Shown: positions 1-12,765 of the stretch, piece by piece | Layout of the letters: the number at the start of each line of letters is the position of its first letter | How positions within the stretch are numbered: position 1 is the first letter of the stretch | From: a virus | Lineage: Duplodnaviria > Heunggongvirae > Uroviricota > Caudoviricetes | Virus record (IMG/VR): IMGVR_UViG_2721755658_000004 | Length of the DNA stretch: 12,765 nucleotides | Direction: 5' to 3' (one strand) | Notes under the pieces: model-generated | Database searches by the model: none | What the model saw: only the letters and a program-made list of their open reading frames with translations | What the model was told of the DNA's origin: nothing | Position numbers and translations under genes: made by a program

Positions 1-378
1 ATGGACGAACAGTGGGGATACGTCGGGGCTAAATCGCGCCAGCGCTGGCTGTTTTACGCGTATGACAGGCTCCGGAAGACGGTTGTTGCGCACGTATTCG
101 GTGAACGCACTATGGCGACGCTGGGGCGTCTTATGAGCCTGCTGTCACCCTTTGACGTGGTGATATGGATGACGGATGGCTGGCCGCTGTATGAATCCCG
201 CCTGAAGGGAAAGCTGCACGTAATCAGCAAGCGATATACGCAGCGAATTGAGCGGCATAACCTGAATCTGAGGCAGCACCTGGCACGGCTGGGACGGAAG
301 TCGCTGTCGTTCTCAAAATCGGTGGAGCTGCATGACAAAGTCATCGGGCATTATCTGAACATAAAACACTATCAATAA
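1..378 (+). CDS. insB: IS1 transposase InsB, C-terminal 125 aa (window begins at an internal Met; N-terminal part lies upstream of the window)
   Basis: Translation [24 protein letters not shown]... is identical to residues 43-167 of the InsB ORF of the complete IS1 copy at 8859-9362. Confidence 0.8.
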
Positions 379-393
379 GTTGGAGTCATTACC
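1..393 (+). mobile_element. IS1, partial (3' 393 bp including the right terminal inverted repeat ...GGAGTCATTACC ending at 393); element continues upstream of the window
   Basis: Sequence 1-393 is the exact reverse complement counterpart of the insB-distal end of the complete IS1 at 8844-9236; terminal sequence ttggagtcattacc at 380-393. Confidence 0.85.
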
Positions 394-548
394 CAGAAAT
401 AGTTGCAATTCATAATTGATCATGGGTTGTCAGTTAAACTCGTGGCGATTTAAATAGACTAATTGGGAGTGCGTCCATTACTTATATCTTGTAATGTTAA
501 CTATCAGAAATGATACAAAGATAATATGTCTTTAAAGAAAAGGCTGAT

Positions 549-575
549 GGCGAAAAGTGGCCCGATGAGGGCCAC
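549..575 (-). terminator. Putative intrinsic terminator of the flxA-like gene (7-bp GC-rich stem GTGGCCC/GGGCCAC, 5-nt loop, then TTTTCGCC on the - strand)
   Basis: Hairpin 557-575 lies 15 nt downstream of the stop codon at 590-592; the U-tract is short (4 U). Confidence 0.4.
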
Positions 576-589
576 AATACGGCTGTCAC

Positions 590-922
590 TTAGACGTAAA
601 TATCAATGGTGCCAGCGGTATTTGTATCGTCTTTTTTCTCTTCTTTTTTATCAGGCTGAACTGTCGCGTCTTCATTCTTTTTCTCTGCCTGCTGCCTTAA
701 CAACTGCTCCAGTTGAGCCCTGAGGCTTTCAATTTGCTTCTGTACCAATGCAGCCATTTCTTTTTTCTGCTGTGTCGTCATCCCCTCTTCCGATGAGATT
801 TTCCCAAGCTTTTCAGTCAGCACCTGAATTTGTCTTGTGATTTTGGCTATTTCTGATGTTCCTTCCGGGGCGGAGTTGTTTGAAATAACGGTTGAGGTAT
901 TTCCCTGAATTGTGACAGACAT
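590..922 (-). CDS. flxA: FlxA-like protein, 110 aa, Lys/Glu-rich with predicted coiled coil
   Basis: ORF with strong RBS (AAAAGGAGAAATCT-ATG); translation MSVTIQGNTSTVISNN...TIDIYV matches my recollection of E. coli FlxA (Qin prophage, FliA-dependent); a sigma-28-like promoter sits immediately upstream. Identity is from memory, not a search. Confidence 0.6.
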   Translation of the reverse strand: MSVTIQGNTSTVISNNSAPEGTSEIAKITRQIQVLTEKLGKISSEEGMTTQQKKEMAALVQKQIESLRAQLEQLLRQQAEKKNEDATVQPDKKEEKKDDTNTAGTIDIYV

Positions 923-945
923 AGATTTCTCCTTTTAAAAAAGCA

Positions 946-972
946 CTATCGACATGCACAAAAAAATCTTTA
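946..972 (-). promoter_or_regulatory. Sigma-28 (FliA)-type promoter: -35 TAAAGATT, 11-nt spacer, -10 GTCGATAG (consensus TAAAGTTT-N11-GCCGATAA)
   Basis: Read on the - strand: TAAAGATT-tttttgtgcat-GTCGATAG, about 23 nt upstream of the flxA-like ATG; 7/8 and 6/8 matches to consensus with the correct spacer. Confidence 0.5.
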
Positions 973-1480
973 ATCGTATTTCTTGTGTCATTAATTGTTT
1001 GATGTTCAGATTGTTTTCCTCGCGGGCTGGCGCGCCTCAGAAAGTAAAGCTTGTTGACAGGGGTAAACGTTCGGCAATAATTTTCTGCCGCATGCGGGTG
1101 TTGCATAAAACGTGCTACGTTCCTTTATCGACAGGTCAGGTCACCGCTCACCCGCCGACGAGAAAGCAACACTGACATGCTAAAGCAAAAAATAGATGAA
1201 TAAGTTGAGTTGTGCATATGTAGCCTGACCGTCACAAAGTATATGGTGTCTGTACCAGTAAGATGATGGCCGGACTCTTTAAAAACGAGCTGACCTGCAC
1301 AATACAGGATGGACTTAGCAATGGCTGCTCCTGGCACATAGCAGACCAGAGACACTGGCGTAAAGCCATGGAGGATCGGTGGGAGGAGGTAAAAATCCTC
1401 TCATGCAAAAAATACGCAAAATCGATAACAGTTGGAAATAATTCAATACTCGCACTATCGGAAGTTCACCAGCCAGTCGT

Positions 1481-1525
1481 AGCACGTTCTTGCATATGAC
1501 GTGGCTACGGGTTTCGAGACCGACC
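1481..1525. repeat. Imperfect direct repeat A (about 45 bp), partner of 2502-2551; resembles the 3' end and 3' flank of the pin gene
   Basis: agcacg-ttcttgcata-tgacgtg-gctacgg-gtttc...ccgacc versus agcacg-atcttcttgcata-cgacgtg-ctacgg-tttc...ccgacc; hand alignment only (roughly 85-90% identity over the ~35-bp core, with one 3-nt indel). Confidence 0.5.
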
Positions 1526-1605
1526 CGATCATCAAACGAAACATAAAATTAGCTCACATTATGAGGAAAGGTATCTTTTTGCGCTATGTAAATTCAAAGG
1601 GTTAG

Positions 1606-2475
<870 letters not shown>

Positions 2476-2501
2476 GTCTTTAAGTGATAAGCATAAACCG
2501 C

Positions 2502-2551
2502 AGCACGATCTTCTTGCATACGACGTGCTACGGTTTCATTTATCTCCGACC
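2502..2551. repeat. Imperfect direct repeat B (about 50 bp), partner of 1481-1525; overlaps the last codons and 3' flank of pin and contains a dyad AGCACG...CGTGCT
   Basis: See repeat A; 2536-2551 encodes the pin C-terminus (..PVGDK*). Confidence 0.5.
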
Positions 2552-3090
2552 GGAAACTTCTTATACAGTGTCGATATACCAACATCATAGATGATCGCCA
2601 CCTTCTGGCGAGGAACGCCTGATGCAATTAATCGCCCGGCCTGCGCCCATTGTTCTGGTGTAAGTTTGGGACGACGTCCACCAATTCGTCCCTGTGCGCG
2701 AGCAGCTTCCAGTCCAGCTTTTGTTCGTTCAACAATCAGTTCTCGTTCCATTTCAGCCAAGGCCCCCATCACATGAAAGAAAAAACGCCCCATTGGTGTG
2801 CTGGTATCAATTGAATCCGTCAGACTACGAAAGTTGATGCCTCGTTCGCGCAACTCCTCCACCAACACGACAAGATGCCGCATACTACGCCCCAGTCGGT
2901 CCAGCTTCCAGACAACCAGAGTGTCACCTGCCGATAATGTCCTGAGCAGTTTTTTCAGTCCCGGCCTTTCGGACTTTGTGCCGCTTATCTTGTCTTCAAA
3001 AATCAGCTCGCATCCTGCACAGTTCAGCGCATTACGTTGTAGATCTGTGTTCTGGTCATTTGTTGATACGCGTACATAGCCAATAAGCAT
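2536..3090 (-). CDS. pin: Serine-recombinase DNA invertase, Pin/Gin/Cin/Hin family, 184 aa
   Basis: Translation from the ATG at 3090 begins MLIGYVRVSTNDQNTDLQ (catalytic Ser in the RVST motif) and ends in an HTH region (GRPPKL...IYDVGISTLYKK); closely resembles my recollection of e14 PinE. The upstream in-frame ATG at 3126 was rejected because family members start at MLIGYVRVS. Confidence 0.85.
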   Translation of the reverse strand: MLIGYVRVSTNDQNTDLQRNALNCAGCELIFEDKISGTKSERPGLKKLLRTLSAGDTLVVWKLDRLGRSMRHLVVLVEELRERGINFRSLTDSIDTSTPMGRFFFHVMGALAEMERELIVERTKAGLEAARAQGRIGGRRPKLTPEQWAQAGRLIASGVPRQKVAIIYDVGISTLYKKFPVGDK

Positions 3091-3116
3091 GGTAGATCCC
3101 CCTGACAAAAGCAGGA

Positions 3117-3509
3117 ATGATGCCATTTGCTCGTTATTTCTGCATTTTCATAAACGTTGGTTTGGGAGAAGCGGCTAAAAGGAATGTAGGGACAGGGGCG
3201 AATCAGATACCTGATATGGGTAGCTTCACGCTTTCTGTTTCAGGTACTGGATATCAAAAATTACCATCAGGTTTTATTCTTCAGTGGGGCTCAATCGGCG
3301 CACCAGGCATTGCACAGGATGTAGTAACCCATTTCCCGATTGCATTTCCAAACAGATGTCTGCGTGTTTTGGTCTCACAAGACTACACACCAGATAGCGG
3401 GGCTGTTGGTTATATTGCCTGTGCAGGTTTTAGTCCCGACCCGGTTAAATTTATATCCAGAGCCAGTACTCCTGGCCTCGGCGCTTCATTTTTAGCGTTA
3501 GGCTGTTAA
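3117..3509 (+). CDS. Tail-fibre protein C-terminal variable segment (fragment; N-terminal constant part would be supplied across the crossover site), 130 aa as an ORF
   Basis: Divergent from pin, contains the crossover site, and is followed by a tail-fibre assembly gene; [13 protein letters not shown]-type motif typical of fibre C-termini. Probably not an autonomous gene. Confidence 0.5.
3145..3170. other. gix/pix-like 26-bp invertase crossover site (TTTTCATAAACG-TT-GGTTTGGGAGAA; half-sites TTTTCATAAACG and TTCTCCCAAACC around a central TT/AA)
   Basis: Imperfect dyad 55 bp upstream of the pin start and inside the 5' end of the tail-fibre variable ORF, as for gix in the Mu S gene; fits the TTxTCxxAAACC half-site pattern of the Hin/Gin/Cin/Pin family. 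Confidence 0.55.
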
Positions 3510-3530
3510 TTTAGCTATATGGAGTGAAAA

Positions 3531-3971
3531 ATGAATTACATATATTCCGCGACTACAAACTCTTTCTATCCGCTGGAGATGAAAGAGGATTACACTCAAG
3601 CTGACTCATGGCCAGATGATGCTGTTGAAGTTGATGAGCAAGTGTATATTAAGTTTTCCGGATTACCGCCGAAAGGAAAAATCCGTATCGCTGGAGAAAA
3701 TGGTTTTCCTGCATGGTCTGAAATTCCACCACCAACACATGAGGAACAGATTGCTGCAGCCGAACTGGAAAAGCAGCAACTGATTAATCAGGCCAACGAT
3801 TATATGAACAGTAAACAATGGCCTGGTAAAGCGGCTATTGGCCGGCTGAAAGGTGAGGAACTGGCGCAATATAATTTGTGGCTGGATTATCTGGACGCAC
3901 TGGAACTGGTCGATACTTCCGGTGCGCCAGATATTGAATGGCCTACGCCTCCGGCAGTTCAGGCCAGATGA
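3531..3971 (+). CDS. Tail-fibre assembly protein (Tfa/U family), 146 aa
   Basis: RBS GGAGTG 6 nt before the ATG; C-terminal region (LWLDYLDALELVDTSGAPDIEWPTPP) characteristic of Tfa chaperones; position immediately after the fibre variable segment. Confidence 0.7.
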   Translation: MNYIYSATTNSFYPLEMKEDYTQADSWPDDAVEVDEQVYIKFSGLPPKGKIRIAGENGFPAWSEIPPPTHEEQIAAAELEKQQLINQANDYMNSKQWPGKAAIGRLKGEELAQYNLWLDYLDALELVDTSGAPDIEWPTPPAVQAR

Positions 3972-4548
3972 CATCCGGCGCGGTGCTGGTATCTGTTGCC
4001 GTCACCGCGTCAATGTAATCCAGCGCAGCGTTAAGTCGGGCGGTTTCTGCCTGCGTCAGATTCCGTCCGGCCTGCAATTTCAGCTGAATCAGACTAATGG
4101 AAGCCATTGCAGTATCAATCAGTGACTGACGCTGTGCTTCTGCCGCGCCTACTGCGGCGCTATGCTGTGCCACAGTATCTGTTACCCATTTCTCACCATC
4201 CCATTCATCGTATGGCGTTAACGGGGCGATAGTGGTTGTATTTTCAGGATAATCACCCGGAGCTGTGATTTCTTTCGATTCTCCTGTTTCGGTGCTATAG
4301 ATGATTTCACCGCGATGGTCTGACACATATTCCCATGAGTTTAAATCTGCCGAACGGCAGATTGCATAACCAGCCTTATGTGTGCCAGGAGCATCTAAAC
4401 AGGAATATGCAGGGATACCGACACCCACAGCAAGATATTCAGTTGATGCAGAAATATACTCCCGTGTCTCACTGTCATAGTTATAAACGGTAATCTCTCC
4501 TGCCTTTGTGGCAATAAATTTACTATTCAAGATGGCGTTATACATCAT
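3943..4548 (-). CDS. Tail-fibre assembly protein (Tfa/U' family), 201 aa, convergent with and overlapping the previous tfa by 29 bp
   Basis: Starts MMYNAILNSKF with RBS GTGAGGG; shares the C-terminal Tfa signature (LDYIDAVTATDTSTAPDVIWPELP); the convergent pair matches the U/U' arrangement of invertible G/P segments. Confidence 0.7.
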   Translation of the reverse strand: MMYNAILNSKFIATKAGEITVYNYDSETREYISASTEYLAVGVGIPAYSCLDAPGTHKAGYAICRSADLNSWEYVSDHRGEIIYSTETGESKEITAPGDYPENTTTIAPLTPYDEWDGEKWVTDTVAQHSAAVGAAEAQRQSLIDTAMASISLIQLKLQAGRNLTQAETARLNAALDYIDAVTATDTSTAPDVIWPELPEA

Positions 4549-4776
4549 GCAGCCCTCACAATGTAATTAAATGAAATATTACGTGGCCGTGTCTCTGCTG
4601 CACCGACAATACTGGGGTACCCAGAAATAGTTGCAATTCATAATTGATCATGGGTTGTCAGTTAAACTCGTGGCGATTTAAATAGACTAATTGGGAGTGC
4701 GTCCATTACTTATATCTTGTAATGTTAACTATCAGAAATGATACAAAGATAATATGTCTTTAAAGAAAAGGCTGAT

Positions 4777-4803
4777 GGCGAAAAGTGGCCCGATGAGGGC
4801 CAC
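4777..4803 (-). terminator. Putative intrinsic terminator of the flxA-like gene (copy 2)
   Basis: Duplicate of 549-575 at +4228. Confidence 0.4.
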
Positions 4804-4817
4804 AATACGGCTGTCAC

Positions 4818-5150
4818 TTAGACGTAAATATCAATGGTGCCAGCGGTATTTGTATCGTCTTTTTTCTCTTCTTTTTTATCAGGCTGAACTGTCGCGTCTT
4901 CATTCTTTTTCTCTGCCTGCTGCCTTAACAACTGCTCCAGTTGAGCCCTGAGGCTTTCAATTTGCTTCTGTACCAATGCAGCCATTTCTTTTTTCTGCTG
5001 TGTCGTCATCCCCTCTTCCGATGAGATTTTCCCAAGCTTTTCAGTCAGCACCTGAATTTGTCTTGTGATTTTGGCTATTTCTGATGTTCCTTCCGGGGCG
5101 GAGTTGTTTGAAATAACGGTTGAGGTATTTCCCTGAATTGTGACAGACAT
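4818..5150 (-). CDS. flxA: FlxA-like protein, 110 aa (copy 2)
   Basis: Translation identical to 590-922. Confidence 0.6.
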   Translation of the reverse strand: MSVTIQGNTSTVISNNSAPEGTSEIAKITRQIQVLTEKLGKISSEEGMTTQQKKEMAALVQKQIESLRAQLEQLLRQQAEKKNEDATVQPDKKEEKKDDTNTAGTIDIYV

Positions 5151-5173
5151 AGATTTCTCCTTTTAAAAAAGCA

Positions 5174-5200
5174 CTATCGACATGCACAAAAAAATCTTTA
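5174..5200 (-). promoter_or_regulatory. Sigma-28 (FliA)-type promoter (copy 2)
   Basis: Duplicate of 946-972 at +4228. Confidence 0.5.
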
Positions 5201-5708
5201 ATCGTATTTCTTGTGTCATTAATTGTTTGATGTTCAGATTGTTTTCCTCGCGGGCTGGCGCGCCTCAGAAAGTAAAGCTTGTTGACAGGGGTAAACGTTC
5301 GGCAATAATTTTCTGCCGCATGCGGGTGTTGCATAAAACGTGCTACGTTCCTTTATCGACAGGTCAGGTCACCGCTCACCCGCCGACGAGAAAGCAACAC
5401 TGACATGCTAAAGCAAAAAATAGATGAATAAGTTGAGTTGTGCATATGTAGCCTGACCGTCACAAAGTATATGGTGTCTGTACCAGTAAGATGATGGCCG
5501 GACTCTTTAAAAACGAGCTGACCTGCACAATACAGGATGGACTTAGCAATGGCTGCTCCTGGCACATAGCAGACCAGAGACACTGGCGTAAAGCCATGGA
5601 GGATCGGTGGGAGGAGGTAAAAATCCTCTCATGCAAAAAATACGCAAAATCGATAACAGTTGGAAATAATTCAATACTCGCACTATCGGAAGTTCACCAG
5701 CCAGTCGT

Positions 5709-5753
5709 AGCACGTTCTTGCATATGACGTGGCTACGGGTTTCGAGACCGACC
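5709..5753. repeat. Imperfect direct repeat A (copy 2)
   Basis: Duplicate of 1481-1525 at +4228. Confidence 0.5.
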
Positions 5754-5833
5754 CGATCATCAAACGAAACATAAAATTAGCTCACATTATGAGGAAAGGT
5801 ATCTTTTTGCGCTATGTAAATTCAAAGGGTTAG

Positions 5834-6703
<870 letters not shown>

Positions 6704-6729
6704 GTCTTTAAGTGATAAGCATAAACCGC

Positions 6730-6779
6730 AGCACGATCTTCTTGCATACGACGTGCTACGGTTTCATTTATCTCCGACC
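6730..6779. repeat. Imperfect direct repeat B (copy 2)
   Basis: Duplicate of 2502-2551 at +4228. Confidence 0.5.
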
Positions 6780-7318
6780 GGAAACTTCTTATACAGTGTC
6801 GATATACCAACATCATAGATGATCGCCACCTTCTGGCGAGGAACGCCTGATGCAATTAATCGCCCGGCCTGCGCCCATTGTTCTGGTGTAAGTTTGGGAC
6901 GACGTCCACCAATTCGTCCCTGTGCGCGAGCAGCTTCCAGTCCAGCTTTTGTTCGTTCAACAATCAGTTCTCGTTCCATTTCAGCCAAGGCCCCCATCAC
7001 ATGAAAGAAAAAACGCCCCATTGGTGTGCTGGTATCAATTGAATCCGTCAGACTACGAAAGTTGATGCCTCGTTCGCGCAACTCCTCCACCAACACGACA
7101 AGATGCCGCATACTACGCCCCAGTCGGTCCAGCTTCCAGACAACCAGAGTGTCACCTGCCGATAATGTCCTGAGCAGTTTTTTCAGTCCCGGCCTTTCGG
7201 ACTTTGTGCCGCTTATCTTGTCTTCAAAAATCAGCTCGCATCCTGCACAGTTCAGCGCATTACGTTGTAGATCTGTGTTCTGGTCATTTGTTGATACGCG
7301 TACATAGCCAATAAGCAT
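6764..7318 (-). CDS. pin: Serine-recombinase DNA invertase, Pin/Gin family (copy 2)
   Basis: Translation identical to 2536-3090. Confidence 0.85.
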   Translation of the reverse strand: MLIGYVRVSTNDQNTDLQRNALNCAGCELIFEDKISGTKSERPGLKKLLRTLSAGDTLVVWKLDRLGRSMRHLVVLVEELRERGINFRSLTDSIDTSTPMGRFFFHVMGALAEMERELIVERTKAGLEAARAQGRIGGRRPKLTPEQWAQAGRLIASGVPRQKVAIIYDVGISTLYKKFPVGDK

Positions 7319-7344
7319 GGTAGATCCCCCTGACAAAAGCAGGA

Positions 7345-7737
7345 ATGATGCCATTTGCTCGTTATTTCTGCATTTTCATAAACGTTGGTTTGGGAGAAGC
7401 GGCTAAAAGGAATGTAGGGACAGGGGCGAATCAGATACCTGATATGGGTAGCTTCACGCTTTCTGTTTCAGGTACTGGATATCAAAAATTACCATCAGGT
7501 TTTATTCTTCAGTGGGGCTCAATCGGCGCACCAGGCATTGCACAGGATGTAGTAACCCATTTCCCGATTGCATTTCCAAACAGATGTCTGCGTGTTTTGG
7601 TCTCACAAGACTACACACCAGATAGCGGGGCTGTTGGTTATATTGCCTGTGCAGGTTTTAGTCCCGACCCGGTTAAATTTATATCCAGAGCCAGTACTCC
7701 TGGCCTCGGCGCTTCATTTTTAGCGTTAGGCTGTTAA
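7345..7737 (+). CDS. Tail-fibre protein C-terminal variable segment (fragment; copy 2)
   Basis: Translation identical to 3117-3509. Confidence 0.5.
7373..7398. other. gix/pix-like crossover site (copy 2)
   Basis: Duplicate of 3145-3170; sequence re-read at 7373-7398. Confidence 0.55.
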
Positions 7738-7758
7738 TTTAGCTATATGGAGTGAAAA

Positions 7759-8199
7759 ATGAATTACATATATTCCGCGACTACAAACTCTTTCTATCCG
7801 CTGGAGATGAAAGAGGATTACACTCAAGCTGACTCATGGCCAGATGATGCTGTTGAAGTTGATGAGCAAGTGTATATTAAGTTTTCCGGATTACCGCCGA
7901 AAGGAAAAATCCGTATCGCTGGAGAAAATGGTTTTCCTGCATGGTCTGAAATTCCACCACCAACACATGAGGAACAGATTGCTGCAGCCGAACTGGAAAA
8001 GCAGCAACTGATTAATCAGGCCAACGATTATATGAACAGTAAACAATGGCCTGGTAAAGCGGCTATTGGCCGGCTGAAAGGTGAGGAACTGGCGCAATAT
8101 AATTTGTGGCTGGATTATCTGGACGCACTGGAACTGGTCGATACTTCCGGTGCGCCAGATATTGAATGGCCTACGCCTCCGGCAGTTCAGGCCAGATGA
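7759..8199 (+). CDS. Tail-fibre assembly protein (copy 2)
   Basis: Translation identical to 3531-3971. Confidence 0.7.
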   Translation: MNYIYSATTNSFYPLEMKEDYTQADSWPDDAVEVDEQVYIKFSGLPPKGKIRIAGENGFPAWSEIPPPTHEEQIAAAELEKQQLINQANDYMNSKQWPGKAAIGRLKGEELAQYNLWLDYLDALELVDTSGAPDIEWPTPPAVQAR

Positions 8200-8776
8200 C
8201 ATCCGGCGCGGTGCTGGTATCTGTTGCCGTCACCGCGTCAATGTAATCCAGCGCAGCGTTAAGTCGGGCGGTTTCTGCCTGCGTCAGATTCCGTCCGGCC
8301 TGCAATTTCAGCTGAATCAGACTAATGGAAGCCATTGCAGTATCAATCAGTGACTGACGCTGTGCTTCTGCCGCGCCTACTGCGGCGCTATGCTGTGCCA
8401 CAGTATCTGTTACCCATTTCTCACCATCCCATTCATCGTATGGCGTTAACGGGGCGATAGTGGTTGTATTTTCAGGATAATCACCCGGAGCTGTGATTTC
8501 TTTCGATTCTCCTGTTTCGGTGCTATAGATGATTTCACCGCGATGGTCTGACACATATTCCCATGAGTTTAAATCTGCCGAACGGCAGATTGCATAACCA
8601 GCCTTATGTGTGCCAGGAGCATCTAAACAGGAATATGCAGGGATACCGACACCCACAGCAAGATATTCAGTTGATGCAGAAATATACTCCCGTGTCTCAC
8701 TGTCATAGTTATAAACGGTAATCTCTCCTGCCTTTGTGGCAATAAATTTACTATTCAAGATGGCGTTATACATCAT
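8171..8776 (-). CDS. Tail-fibre assembly protein (copy 2)
   Basis: Translation identical to 3943-4548. Confidence 0.7.
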   Translation of the reverse strand: MMYNAILNSKFIATKAGEITVYNYDSETREYISASTEYLAVGVGIPAYSCLDAPGTHKAGYAICRSADLNSWEYVSDHRGEIIYSTETGESKEITAPGDYPENTTTIAPLTPYDEWDGEKWVTDTVAQHSAAVGAAEAQRQSLIDTAMASISLIQLKLQAGRNLTQAETARLNAALDYIDAVTATDTSTAPDVIWPELPEA

Positions 8777-8843
8777 GCAGCCCTCACAATGTAATTAAAT
8801 GAAATATTACGTGGCCGTGTCTCTGCTGCACCGACAATACTGG
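8773..8843 (-). pseudogene. 3' remnant (about 23 codons) of a tail-fibre gene, truncated by IS1; its TGA stop overlaps the tfa ATG (ATGA)
   Basis: The - strand frame ...PSIVGAAETRPRNISFNYIVRAA* runs open up to the IS1 boundary at 8844; the equivalent remnant in copy 1 (4545-4617) abuts the duplication junction. Confidence 0.3.
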
Positions 8844-8858
8844 GGTAATGACTCCAAC

Positions 8859-9362
8859 TTATTGATAGTGTTTTATGTTCAGATAATGCCCGATGACTTT
8901 GTCATGCAGCTCCACCGATTTTGAGAACGACAGCGACTTCCGTCCCAGCCGTGCCAGGTGCTGCCTCAGATTCAGGTTATGCCGCTCAATTCGCTGCGTA
9001 TATCGCTTGCTGATTACGTGCAGCTTTCCCTTCAGGCGGGATTCATACAGCGGCCAGCCATCCGTCATCCATATCACCACGTCAAAGGGTGACAGCAGGC
9101 TCATAAGACGCCCCAGCGTCGCCATAGTGCGTTCACCGAATACGTGCGCAACAACCGTCTTCCGGAGCCTGTCATACGCGTAAAACAGCCAGCGCTGGCG
9201 CGATTTAGCCCCGACGTATCCCCACTGTTCGTCCATTTCCGCGCAGACGATGACGTCACTGCCCGGCTGTATGCGCGAGGTTACCGACTGCGGCCTGAGT
9301 TTTTTAAGTGACGTAAAATCGTGTTGAGGCCAACGCCCATAATGCGGGCTGTTGCCCGGCAT
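8859..9362 (-). CDS. insB: IS1 transposase InsB (ORF as in track; expressed as InsAB' fusion by -1 frameshift)
   Basis: Translation [49 protein letters not shown]... is canonical IS1 InsB. Confidence 0.85.
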
Positions 9363-9556
9363 CCAACGCCATTCATGGCCATATCAATGATTTTCTGGTG
9401 CGTACCGGGTTGAGAAGCGGTGTAAGTGAACTGCAGTTGCCATGTTTTACGGCAGTGAGAGCAGAGATAGCGCTGATGTCCGGCGGTGCTTTTGCCGTTA
9501 CGCACCACCCCGTCAGTAGCTGAACAGGAGGGACAGCTGATAGAAACAGAAGCCAC
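9281..9556 (-). CDS. insA: IS1 protein InsA (transposition inhibitor / N-terminal part of transposase), 91 aa
   Basis: Translation [43 protein letters not shown]... is canonical IS1 InsA with zinc-finger cysteines. Confidence 0.9.
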
Positions 9557-9693
9557 TGGAGCACCTCAAAAACACCATCATACACTAAATCAGTAAGTTG
9601 GCAGCATCACCTTAATTTTCATCAATCCATTTAACTATCGTTTAATTGTTGTCACATAGGATTCTGCCGTTTTTAACAATGCAGGATAATAAG

Positions 9694-9987
9694 ATGAAAA
9701 AAATGTTATTTTCTGCCGCTCTGGCAATGCTTATTACAGGATGTGCTCAACAGACGTTTACTGTTGGAAACAAACCGACAGCAGTAACACCAAAGGAAAC
9801 CATCACCCATCATTTCTTCGTTTCGGGAATTGGACAGGAGAAAACTGTTGATGCAGCCAAAATTTGTGGCGGCGCAGAAAATGTGGTTAAAACAGAAACC
9901 CAGCAAACATTCGTAAATGGATTGCTCGGTTTTATTACTTTAGGCATTTATACTCCGCTGGAAGCGCGGGTGTATTGCTCACAATAA
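9694..9987 (+). CDS. bor: Bor outer-membrane lipoprotein (lambda bor / Iss family), 97 aa
   Basis: Start chosen at MKKMLFSAALAMLITGC (lipobox LITGC) with RBS AGGAT; sequence near-identical to my recollection of lambda Bor. The upstream in-frame start at 9646 was rejected. Confidence 0.85.
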   Translation: MKKMLFSAALAMLITGCAQQTFTVGNKPTAVTPKETITHHFFVSGIGQEKTVDAAKICGGAENVVKTETQQTFVNGLLGFITLGIYTPLEARVYCSQ

Positions 9988-9997
9988 TTGCATGAGT

Positions 9998-10015
9998 TGC
10001 CCATCGATATGGGCA
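9998..10015. terminator. Stem-loop between convergent bor and Rz (TGCCCAT-cgat-ATGGGCA); possible bidirectional terminator, weak U-tracts
   Basis: 7-bp perfect stem read directly; lies between the bor stop (9987) and the Rz stop (10019). Confidence 0.3.
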
Positions 10016-10018
10016 GCT

Positions 10019-10480
10019 CTATCTGCACTGCTCATTAATATACTTCTGGGTTCCTTCCAGTTGTTTTTGCATAGTGATCAGCCTCTCTCTGAGGGTGAAA
10101 TAATCCCGTTCAGCGGTGTCTGCCAGTCGGGGGGAGGCTGCATTATCCACGCCGGAGGCGGTGGTGGCTTCACGCACTGACTGACAGACTGCTTTGATGT
10201 GCAACCGACGACGACCAGCGGCAACATCATCACGCAGAGCATCATTTTCAGCTTTCGCATCAGCTAACTCCTTCGTGTATTTTGCATCGAGCGCAGCAAC
10301 ATCACGCTGACGCATCTGCATGTCAGTAATTGTCGAGTTCGCCAGCTTCAGTTCTCTGGCATTTTTGTCGCGCTGGGCTTTGTAGGTAATGGCGTTATCG
10401 CGGTAATGATTAACAGCCCATGACAAGCAAACGATGATGCAGATAACCAGAGCGGAAATAATCGCGGTTACTCTGCTCAT
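10019..10480 (-). CDS. Rz: Rz i-spanin (inner-membrane spanin subunit), 153 aa
   Basis: Translation [44 protein letters not shown]... is near-identical to lambda Rz from memory; 4-bp overlap with R. Confidence 0.9.
10078..10260 (-). CDS. Rz1: Rz1 o-spanin lipoprotein, 60 aa, embedded in the +1 frame of Rz
   Basis: Translation [60 protein letters not shown] has the lipobox VVVGC and proline-rich region and is near-identical to lambda Rz1. Confidence 0.85.
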
Positions 10481-10953
10481 ACCTCAATCTCTCTGACCGT
10501 TCCGCCTGCTTCTTTGAATTTTGCAATCAGGCTGTCAGCCTTATGCTCGAACTGACCGTAACCAGCGCCCGGCAACGAAGCCCAGATATTGCTGCAACGG
10601 TCGATAGCCTGACGAATATCACCACGATCAATCATCGGTAAAGCGCCACGTTCTTTAATCTGCTGCAATGCCACAGCGTCCTGGCTTTTGGGGGAGAAGT
10701 CTTTCAAACCAAGCTGTTTACGGTAAGCATCCCACCAACGTGAAAGAAGCTGGTAACGTCCGGCGGCTGTTGATTTGAGTTTGGGGTTTAGCGTGACAAG
10801 TTTGCGAGGGTGATCGGAGTAATCAGTAAATAGCTCTCCGCCTACAATGACGTCATAACCATGATTTCTGGTTTTCTGCCGTCCGTTATCCGTTCCTTCT
10901 GACCATGCAACCATATCCAGGAAAGCTTTACGCTGGGAATTTAGTACCTGCAT
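10477..10953 (-). CDS. R: Endolysin R (lambda-type lytic transglycosylase), 158 aa
   Basis: Translation ...[48 protein letters not shown]... is near-identical to lambda R from memory, with a divergent N-terminus. Confidence 0.9.
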
Positions 10954-10956
10954 AAA

Positions 10957-11388
10957 TTACTCCTTCGAGCTACCAAACTTGTTACCGATTACTCTCATTG
11001 CAGCCCCACGAATAGCATCGACACCGATCAGCCCCACCCCACCACCAATGGCAACAGAAAGCGATTTAGGCCATCCGACATACTCAAGCGCGGATGCAAA
11101 GGTCAACGTCAGAGCGCCACATAGCAAAATCTCGAGCGTTTTTCGCTTCCAGCCACCACCACCGCCAAAATAGGCGATGCGCAAACCAGCCATAACAATC
11201 GACATAATCACTGCGCCCAGCGGCGTATCTCCACGCCACCAGCTCTGAAACAACTCCAGCCAGTCCGGCCAGGTATTTGGGTTATGAGGCATTTCGTCAT
11301 CTCTCACCTCGCGATATTTGCGGGTGCTGTGTTGGAAATAAAAAGGCCACGCAACGTGGCCACCAGAATTATTTCCCCACCAGTTCAC
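10957..11388 (-). CDS. Candidate holin / lysis membrane protein (three predicted TM segments), 143 aa from GTG 11388; alternative internal ATG start at 11292 (111 aa)
   Basis: Sits immediately upstream of R with a 3-nt gap; hydrophobic segments LGAVIMSIVMAGLRIAYF, TLEILLCGALTLTFASALEY, SLSVAIGGGVGLIGVDAI; RBS AAGAGG before the GTG. Not recognisably lambda S; call rests on position and topology. Confidence 0.45.
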   Translation of the reverse strand: MNWWGNNSGGHVAWPFYFQHSTRKYREVRDDEMPHNPNTWPDWLELFQSWWRGDTPLGAVIMSIVMAGLRIAYFGGGGGWKRKTLEILLCGALTLTFASALEYVGWPKSLSVAIGGGVGLIGVDAIRGAAMRVIGNKFGSSKE

Positions 11389-12421
11389 TTACCTCTTTCA
11401 CCGTCTGATTAAACCGCTCTGACTCAAGTTCAACACCTAACGCCCGACGCCCCAGCGCCATTGCCGCTTTTATTGTGGAACCGGATCCCATAAAGAAATC
11501 AGCAACCAGATCGCCTTGTCGACTACTGGCACTGATTATTTGCCGGAGCATATCCGCGGGCTTCTCACACGGATGTTTACCCGGGTAGAACTGAACGGGT
11601 TTATGCGTCCAGACGTCGGTATAAGGCACGGAAACTGATACGGAGAAATAGCGCCGGAGAGTTTTAAACTCATCCAGCAATTCAGAATATTTGCGATTCA
11701 GTGAATCATAAGATGCCACCAGCTGGTGGTGTGGTTGTTCCAGTTGTTGTTCCTGAAATTTCTCTGCCGCTATACGGGAAAACAGTGCCTGCAACTTCCG
11801 GTAGTCAGCCTCATTCGGCAACTGCCACTGACTGGCACCAAACCAGTGGGAAACCATATTTTTCTTACCAGTGGCTTCGGCAATCTGTTTTGCCGTTATA
11901 CCCAGTTCGGCACGAGCATCCCTGAAATACGAAATCAGCGGTGCCATTATGTGCTGTTTGAGTTGACTTTCTTTTGCCGCATAGCCGTCACTTTTGCCGC
12001 GATATGGTCCCTGGTAATGTTCAGCAAACAGAACGCGTTCTGTTGCGGGAAAATATGCGCGCAGACTTTCTTTATTACACCCGTTCCATCGTCCGGACGG
12101 CTTCGCCCAGATAATATGGTTAAGAACGTTGAAACGTTCACGCATCATGATCTCGATATCAGATGCGAGGCGATGTCCACAGAACAGGTAAAGGCTTCCG
12201 GCAGGTTTCAGCACCCGCCAGAACTGAGCCAGACAGTGGTCCAGCCACTTCAGGTAATCTTCGTCCCCTTTCCACTGATTGTCCCAACCGTTGGGTTTCA
12301 CCTTGAAGTACGGCGGATCGGTAACAATCAGGTCAATGGAATCATCAGGCAGGGACTGAATAAAATGCAGGCAATCAGCGTTGATTAAATCAGCACTGTT
12401 TATTTTCACAGTATTTTTCAT
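11369..12421 (-). CDS. DNA methyltransferase, beta-class amino-MTase (N6-adenine or N4-cytosine), 350 aa; no restriction endonuclease partner in the window
   Basis: Motif IV DPPY near the N-terminus (IVTDPPYF) and the AdoMet-binding motif I FFMGSGST near the C-terminus; this IV-before-I order marks the beta group. Its 3' end overlaps the holin start by 20 nt. Confidence 0.75.
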   Translation of the reverse strand: MKNTVKINSADLINADCLHFIQSLPDDSIDLIVTDPPYFKVKPNGWDNQWKGDEDYLKWLDHCLAQFWRVLKPAGSLYLFCGHRLASDIEIMMRERFNVLNHIIWAKPSGRWNGCNKESLRAYFPATERVLFAEHYQGPYRGKSDGYAAKESQLKQHIMAPLISYFRDARAELGITAKQIAEATGKKNMVSHWFGASQWQLPNEADYRKLQALFSRIAAEKFQEQQLEQPHHQLVASYDSLNRKYSELLDEFKTLRRYFSVSVSVPYTDVWTHKPVQFYPGKHPCEKPADMLRQIISASSRQGDLVADFFMGSGSTIKAAMALGRRALGVELESERFNQTVKEVSELVGK

Positions 12422-12552
12422 GGATCAGTAAGCGTAACTCTGGTAGGCTCACTCTGCTTTTGCGCTAAAGCAGTGGGCCGTGGTTCGCTTGTGACCAGTA
12501 AGCATGAGCGAATGGCTGGCAGGTGCTACCAACACCCACCAGCCGCCCATTT

Positions 12553-12584
12553 TCACAAATTAAAAGCCCTTCATTGCTGAAGGC
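12553..12584 (-). terminator. Putative intrinsic terminator overlapping the stop of the 64-aa ORF (6-bp stem CCTTCA/TGAAGG, GCAA loop, then UUUUAAUUUGUG on the - strand)
   Basis: Hairpin 12568-12583 followed on the - strand by a U-rich tract; position between an upstream small gene and the late lysis genes is reminiscent of a tR'-type element (inference). Confidence 0.4.
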
Positions 12585-12765
12585 GTCTGTAACAGCCGAA
12601 CTGGTAATCTGCCAGCCCCGCCATAACCAGCTGGGTCAGTATTAACTGACAGCGTTCGCGTGAAAGGTATGTGTTTTGTGCAATCTCCCCGACTGTTGCC
12701 GGTTTGCCGTTTAATTCATTAAAAACAACTTTCGCCGTTTCTGTCATATCTAGCTGTTTTAGCAT
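12571..12765 (-). CDS. Hypothetical small protein, 64 aa, possible winged-helix/HTH DNA-binding fold (TVGEIAQNTYLSRERCQLILTQLVMAGL)
   Basis: ORF whose ATG coincides with the window edge; HTH-like segment by eye. No family recognised; N-terminus could extend beyond the window. Confidence 0.35.
   Translation of the reverse strand: MLKQLDMTETAKVVFNELNGKPATVGEIAQNTYLSRERCQLILTQLVMAGLADYQFGCYRRLQQ

Follow-up and report, generated by a model that had tools for sequence, protein, structure and literature searches.

A recent tandem duplication between two inverted IS1 copies in a prophage, joined by a hexamer that can be drawn from the facing IS1 tips

Results

The window, by which we mean the whole 12,765-bp stretch of DNA that was analyzed (IMG/VR record IMGVR_UViG_2721755658_000004), carries the distal end of a decayed, Mu-like-tailed E. 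coli prophage twice over between two copies of IS1. It begins within the left IS1, of which the 3' part is present (positions 1 to 393, plus strand, 393 bp) and whose right end (IRR) reads ...GGAGTCATTACC up to its last base at 393. The duplicated unit follows as copy 1 (394 to 4615) and copy 2 (4622 to 8843); the copies are 4222 bp each, lie head to tail with a period of 4228 bp, and are identical, with 0 mismatches. Between them stands a novel junction, GGTACC (4616 to 4621). Copy 2 is followed by a complete IS1 of 768 bp on the minus strand (8844 to 9611), which is inverted relative to the left one and has its IRR (GGTAATGACTCC...) toward the unit and its IRL (...GCAGCATCACC) toward iss. 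The DNA beyond it, from 9612 to 12765, is a prophage lysis region that comes from the same or a related prophage.

We named the genes of the unit from Pfam matches and from the annotation of relatives. With coordinates given for copy 1, the unit holds flxA (590 to 922, minus strand), a small hypothetical gene, a gene for a LEM-3-like GIY-YIG protein (1702 to 2475, plus strand), the pin invertase gene of the Pin family (2536 to 3090, minus strand), a gp53-like alternative tail-fiber C terminus (3117 to 3509, plus strand), a tail-fiber assembly gene that encodes a 146-aa protein (3531 to 3971, plus strand; 7759 to 8199 in copy 2), another tail-fiber assembly gene (3943 to 4545, minus strand), and a 67-bp stub of the 3' end of a tail-fiber gene (4549 to 4615). 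Where the gp53-like cassette starts, each unit copy keeps a single Pin crossover site, pix (3145 to 3170 in copy 1 and 7373 to 7398 in copy 2; reverse complement TTCTCCCAAACCAACGTTTATGAAAA). The partner Pin site should lie in the part of the tail-fiber gene that has been deleted from this prophage (see below), and the tail-fiber switch appears to be frozen. Three relatives (L013, L014, and L020) carry the segment on the right of the Pin crossover site in the opposite orientation. In annotated relatives, part of a capsid gene is found between flxA and the GIY-YIG gene. A 24-nt sequence immediately upstream of the GIY-YIG gene (1652 to 1675 and 5880 to 5903) recurs with 88% identity at the 3' end of Rz (10024 to 10047) and may be left over from mosaic prophage joints.

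The right flank carries iss/bor (9694 to 9987, plus strand) and, on the minus strand, the genes for Rz (10019 to 10480), a lysozyme (10477 to 10953), a holin (10957 to 11292), and a DNA methyltransferase (11369 to 12421), as well as a 64-aa open reading frame (ORF) at 12571 to 12765. This flank is 99.9% identical to the prophages of strains 14EC001 and E89. Several PLSDB plasmid entries, either ~3.5-3.6 kb or ~48.5 kb in size, are ~94% identical to its bor-Rz-lysozyme region (9640 to 10935), and their hosts are unrelated (Staphylococcus, Acinetobacter, Synechocystis, Paenibacillus, and Stenotrophomonas). These entries look like phage lambda control DNA, either whole lambda or the 3.6-kb sequencing control amplicon, that was deposited as plasmids.

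The two IS1 elements form an inverted pair that is 100% complementary over the 394 nt available (left copy versus 8844 to 9236), and their right ends face each other across the unit. The left element ends in CATTACC at 387 to 393, and the right element begins with GGTAATGACTCC at 8844. Three independent IS1-free empty sites make these boundaries exact to the base. At the left site, K-12 and CP088890.1 read ...GTGACTA followed directly by CAGAAATAG, with homology starting exactly at 394. On the unit side of the right site, H10407, CP088890.1, and several other contigs read ...CAATACTGG followed directly by TACTCAACC. On its iss side, 14EC001 and E89 read ...ATATAGTT followed directly by TTAATTTTC. 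The best reference is CP088890.1, which carries the whole unit once, colinear and at 99.93% identity, with both native flanks and without IS1 (L016, 6864 to 11085). Comparison with these relatives shows that the ancestral prophage end was single copy and IS1 free.

No 9-bp target duplication flanks the right IS1 (CAATACTGG versus TTAATTTTC), which joins the 3' stub of the tail-fiber gene straight to the region upstream of iss. At its position, 14EC001 and E89 carry HNH, terminase, and further structural genes (>14 kb). The missing target duplication implies that the right IS1 marks an IS1-associated deletion inside the prophage, and this deletion is older than the duplication. The window holds no further IS1 within the 3.1 kb to the right of this element.

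There are 3 differences between the right IS1 and the IS1A of NZ_CP063499.1 (strain EH10-18-47; L002, 5236 to 6010). In that strain, IS1A sits at the identical flxA-side position, where ...CATTACC is followed directly by CAGAAATAG (window 387 to 402). Its context differs from that of the window, with a truncated Rac-type integrase to the left and a Qin-like ydfV-relBE-hokD region ~950 bp on. The common position reflects either an insertion hot spot or a junction that was spread by recombination.

The junction between the unit copies reads ...CAATACTGG (4607 to 4615), GGTACC (4616 to 4621), and CAGAAAT (from 4622 on), and its 31-mer is CCGACAATACTGGGGTACCCAGAAATAGTTG. GGTACC is found once in the whole window. 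The first-pass annotation had described this hexamer as GGTA from the right IS1 and TACC from the left IS1, overlapping at TA, and its coordinates and sequences were all correct on recheck. The direct repeat reaches 4 nt into the left IS1, where 390 to 393 equal 4618 to 4621 (TACC), and 4 nt into the right IS1, where 8844 to 8847 equal 4616 to 4619 (GGTA), so that the repeat extents are 390 to 4619 and 4618 to 8847. The two intrusions overlap in the TA at 4618 to 4619, with parental TA at 390 to 391 in the left IS1 and at 8846 to 8847 in the right IS1. These extents agree with the earlier description and refine it to three equivalent ones, GG+TACC, GGT+ACC, and GGTA+CC; that is, the first 2 to 4 nt of the right IS1 are joined to the last 2 to 4 nt of the left IS1 across a 2-bp junctional microhomology.

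The breakpoints had been placed inside the IS1 termini rather than in unit DNA, and there they remain: they lie 2 to 4 nt within each facing IRR, and the flanks natively lack the junction bases. All six of these bases can be derived from the two IS1 tips, and none is native to either flank in IS1-free relatives. A native GGTACC was rejected because the uninterrupted sequence of each flank is known and reads otherwise. In the native tail-fiber sequence, ...ACTGG does continue with TAC; these 3 nt agree with the junction by coincidence and leave its preceding GG and following C unexplained.

The TA is the 3rd and 4th nt from each IS1 tip. Both breakpoints therefore occupy mirror-image positions in the two tips, positions that would pair in an IS1-IS1 stem, and this bears out the earlier suggestion that the IS1 ends are implicated. 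GGTACC is the center of an 8-bp palindrome, GGGTACCC (4615 to 4622), the extra pair of which is there by chance. When two inverted ends are joined symmetrically, a palindrome necessarily results, and the KpnI site is thus a by-product. Only 5 of the 4096 possible hexamers (ATTACC, GTTACC, GGTACC, GGTAAC, and GGTAAT; ~0.1%) consist of a prefix of GGTAAT... and a suffix of ...ATTACC, and a chance origin of the junction hexamer seems unlikely.

Taken as a whole, the locus has the features of a microhomology-mediated tandem duplication, namely, head-to-tail copies, one novel junction, and a short identity that is retained once. There is no long direct repeat at the duplication endpoints, where the sole long repeat is the inverted IS1 pair, and homologous unequal crossing-over is therefore excluded. 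The zero divergence between the unit copies fits a recent event. What we see looks like a real and recent event in which the DNA between two inverted IS1 copies was duplicated in tandem. The duplication implies no function and is probably neutral and transient; it involves a decayed prophage end, and a phenotypic consequence is probably absent. Short ORFs run over the duplication junction (4556 to 4651, minus strand; 31 aa) and over the two IS1/unit boundaries (8799 to 8924, plus strand, 41 aa; 313 to 423, minus strand, 36 aa) and have IS1-derived C termini in common. Gene calls on record include none of the three, which are probably without significance.

A search of related genomes for the same junction had been proposed, and we ran it without finding a second instance. 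BLAST searches with the junction and with the unit/IS1 and IS1/iss boundaries returned nothing that spans them in 5,426 complete E. coli genomes, in PLSDB plasmids, or in phages. Exact-pattern scans for GCACCGACAATACTGGGGTA and TACCCAGAAATAGTTGCAATTCATAA gave 0 matches in genome, viral, and metagenome contigs. The collections searched also held no circle, no single-copy IS1-unit-IS1 ancestor, and no genome with the order unit-IS1-X-IS1-unit, and the lineage of the window is absent from all of them. Exact protein matches were found for both copies of the 146-aa tail-fiber assembly protein (APK70724.1 and APK70729.1) and for the lysozyme (APK70734.1). The accession spacings of 5 and 5 fit the gene order copy-1 tfa, copy-2 tfa, tfa200, IS1, iss, Rz, lysozyme, which suggests that GenBank has a deposited E. 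coli genome with the duplication annotated.

Discussion

We consider the junction to be best explained as an IS-end scar made on the two facing IS1 right ends, by a transposase-initiated strand switch or end join that was followed by homologous reintegration, and we give this reading a probability of roughly 45%. IS1 transposase would pair the two facing IRR ends in a "reversed-ends" synapse; with the ends used this way round, the 4.2-kb segment is the only DNA that does not belong to the "transposon." The 3'-OH at the right end of the segment would then be extended by a few bases of the right IS1 (...TGG-GGTA). Synthesis would jump at TA to the equivalent spot at the left IS1 tip and continue from there as CC-CAGAAAT.... 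A microhomology end join could take the place of the strand switch on the reversed ends. The product would be either a 4228-bp circle, consisting of the unit plus GGTACC, or a directly re-copied unit, and RecA-dependent recombination of the circle with the resident unit on the sister chromosome would give IS1-unit-GGTACC-unit-IS1. When worked through, this transposase-initiated route yields exactly the observed junction. Its most specific form, in which the transposase synapses the inside ends of the inverted pair, an abortive copy-out with a strand switch circularizes the segment with a 6-bp scar, and the circle re-enters by homologous recombination, is offered more tentatively than the reading as a whole.

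In inverted IS1 composites such as Tn1681, which transpose with like ends, pairs of like IS1 ends are transposase substrates. The two facing IRR ends form a legitimate end pair. We also considered staggered transposase cuts by which the donor would retain IS bases before its ends are joined. Linear IS3 molecules carry flank-derived overhangs and not the reverse, which makes this route less attractive than a strand switch after priming into the IS. Against the transposase reading, the identical junction can also be drawn by a transposase-independent template switch, and E. coli is not known to have classical nonhomologous end joining (NHEJ). The first-pass annotation had named both transposase action and end-proximal illegitimate recombination as possible causes, and the sequence is compatible with either.

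Work on IS excision gives the reversed-ends reaction some footing. IS1 is counted among the copy-out-paste-in IS families and is reported to produce circles (bioRxiv 10.1101/2023.06.07.543989). [quoted passage not shown] As a class, IEE-promoted excision needs an active transposase; when ISApl1 or IS30 is lost, deletions remain between 2-4-bp microhomologies that lie no more than a few bases from the IS tips, and some of these deletions intrude into the IS, and a strand switch of the copy-out primer has been proposed for these excision scars (bioRxiv 10.1101/2023.06.07.543989). Against this stands the report that IEE gave no detectable extension on 2-nt overlaps in vitro (bioRxiv 10.1101/2023.06.07.543989), and the 2 bp used here is at the weak end of the range. 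In the literature, we found no published imprecise IS1 excision scars; IEE assays select for precise excision.

The junction resembles the excision scars of ISApl1 (from Tn6330), IS30, and IS629 with IEE in its tip-proximal breakpoints, its partial intrusion into the IS, and its microhomology, which at 2 bp (TA) is at the lower limit of the 2-4 bp seen with those elements, and IS1 is among the IEE-responsive families. In those scars, however, the IS is deleted and its outside flanks are joined, whereas here both IS1 copies are kept and the two ends of one inter-IS segment are joined, so that, formally, what has been "excised" is everything outside the unit. Since both IS1 copies are retained, this would be a reversed-ends variant and not a standard member of the excision-scar class. 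The closest conceptual parallel is the reversed-ends (alternative) transposition of maize Ac/fAc, although both the chemistry and the junction content differ. The maize reaction reportedly yields tandem direct duplications of adjacent DNA and, like the reaction proposed here, pairs the facing ends of separate nearby elements. It is a eukaryotic hAT cut-and-paste process with NHEJ repair, in which the excised ends reportedly insert into the sister chromatid, an element stands at the duplication junction, and the inter-element segment reportedly gets a footprint and is lost.

Other IS-bounded systems are more distant. IS-mediated amplification, as in Tn9 with its direct IS1 copies or in the translocatable units of IS26, likewise places an IS-bounded segment in tandem, but it needs direct IS copies and leaves a full IS at every junction, whereas the IS1 copies here are inverted and the junction is 6 bp long. 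For the same reasons, inverted copies and a 6-bp junction without an IS, homologous IS1-IS1 amplification was rejected. The Tn1681-type composite has the same architecture of IS1, segment, and inverted IS1. Unlike Tn1681, the present arrangement shows no sign of having moved as a unit, and its right IS1, with no target duplication, marks a >14-kb deletion within one prophage. Our literature search found no description of an inverted-IS1 inter-IS segment that had been duplicated through an IS-tip scar.

The strongest rival, which we hold to be less likely, is a transposase-independent template switch that is guided by the inverted repeats and resembles the "nearly precise excision" of Tn10 and Tn5. 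Precise and nearly precise excision of these transposons is inverted-repeat-stimulated replication slippage between 9-bp or 24-bp direct repeats, by which the element is deleted; it is established for kilobase-long arms with spacers of several kilobases. In common with Tn10 and Tn5, the locus has long inverted IS arms, endpoints that correspond in position between the arms, and a short palindrome left behind. A TA at precisely the same place in each arm of a perfect inverted repeat, here at least 394 bp and probably 768 bp long, is the hallmark of slippage at the base of a stem, and the remnant at the junction is palindromic. However, the known inverted-repeat-stimulated excisions use direct repeats of 9 to 24 bp, which would make an event on 2 bp orders of magnitude rarer, and the visible product here is a duplication. 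Basal, IEE-independent IS excision may itself be fork slippage (bioRxiv 10.1101/2023.06.07.543989).

Slippage could have acted in one step or in two. In the two-step variant, homologous recombination of the left IS1 with a direct IS1 copy further right would first produce unit-[IS1rev-X-IS1fwd]-unit, and this inverted-repeat element would then snap back during replication and be skipped at the base of its stem via TA. The deletion reproduces the junction, but the variant needs an unobserved large duplication in addition to a rare deletion, and the 3.1 kb to the right contains no IS1 that could have served. In the one-step variant, a polymerase that is copying the loop of an IS1-unit-IS1 panhandle in long single-stranded DNA would cross the stem base and re-copy the loop. 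Drawn by hand, the panhandle jump also gives the observed junction exactly, at the price of a single-stranded template of >5.7 kb, which is unusual in vivo. A one-step fork template switch between the IS1 arms was rejected, since by hand it gives inverted and not direct products.

It is improbable that the junction is an artifact, made in vitro (by template switching on snap-back strands in whole-genome amplification or as a chimeric library molecule) or by the assembler. Strand-displacing polymerases do make microhomology chimeras, exact multikilobase tandem repeats are difficult to assemble, and among the genome, plasmid, phage, and metagenome records searched there was no independent one with the junction. 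On the other hand, the hexamer is absent from the parental sequence, and a k-mer assembler cannot invent it when the parental paths have only TA in common; a de Bruijn graph misjoin was rejected on the same ground, 2 nt being all that these paths have in common. For a chimeric library molecule to enter the consensus, most of the reads would need to come from it. Past copy 2, the contig continues across the whole 768-bp IS1 and on into unique flank, something that takes long reads or good scaffolding, and the accession spacing indicates that the assembly appears to have been deposited and annotated with both copies.

Very improbable, finally, are an engineered KpnI/Acc65I cloning junction and a chance microhomology duplication that has nothing to do with IS1. 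GGTACC is a common cloning site, and the first-pass annotation had cautioned that an engineered origin should be excluded. That caution can now largely be set aside. Cloning would leave the site at both ends or need a resident site, but there is one GGTACC only, the outer IS1 ends are natural and read GGTAAT and ATTACC, the junction bases all come from resident DNA, and the palindrome arises automatically. Moreover, no vector, linker, or scar sequence surrounds the junction, and a decayed prophage offers no reason for engineering. As for chance, short-microhomology tandem duplications do arise spontaneously, but mirrored breakpoints that both fall within 4 nt of the tips have a probability of ~1e-3 by hexamer count and a far lower one by breakpoint position. 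Action of the Pin invertase on pseudosites was rejected as well; against a background mean of 7.5 matches, no more than 3 to 5 of the 26 positions of the resident pix site are matched by the IS1 tips and by the junction.

Segments between inverted IS copies are usually thought to be unable to amplify, since recombination between inverted repeats inverts DNA and does not duplicate it. The junction shows that duplication of such a segment is possible all the same, with breakpoints that are tied to the IS tips. If the event was transposase dependent, it would extend to reversed ends the strand-switch model of IS excision, which has been invoked for how flanking IS copies are lost from resistance genes, mcr-1 among them. 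IS1 composites, including enterotoxin and resistance transposons, would likewise gain a further route by which cargo is duplicated or circles form. If the proposed reaction is true, it would be a bacterial counterpart of alternative Ac/Ds transposition. Inverted-IS composites, to which amplification by IS-IS recombination is closed, would then have a means of duplicating their cargo that has not been described before. The locus is a natural example that bears on models of IS excision, drawn from a single genome and a single event; it is not a new system, and the mechanism is one that we propose from the sequence. On a practical level, a lone GGTACC at a rearrangement junction beside IS1 need not mean engineering, because symmetric joins of IS1 tips produce GGTACC.
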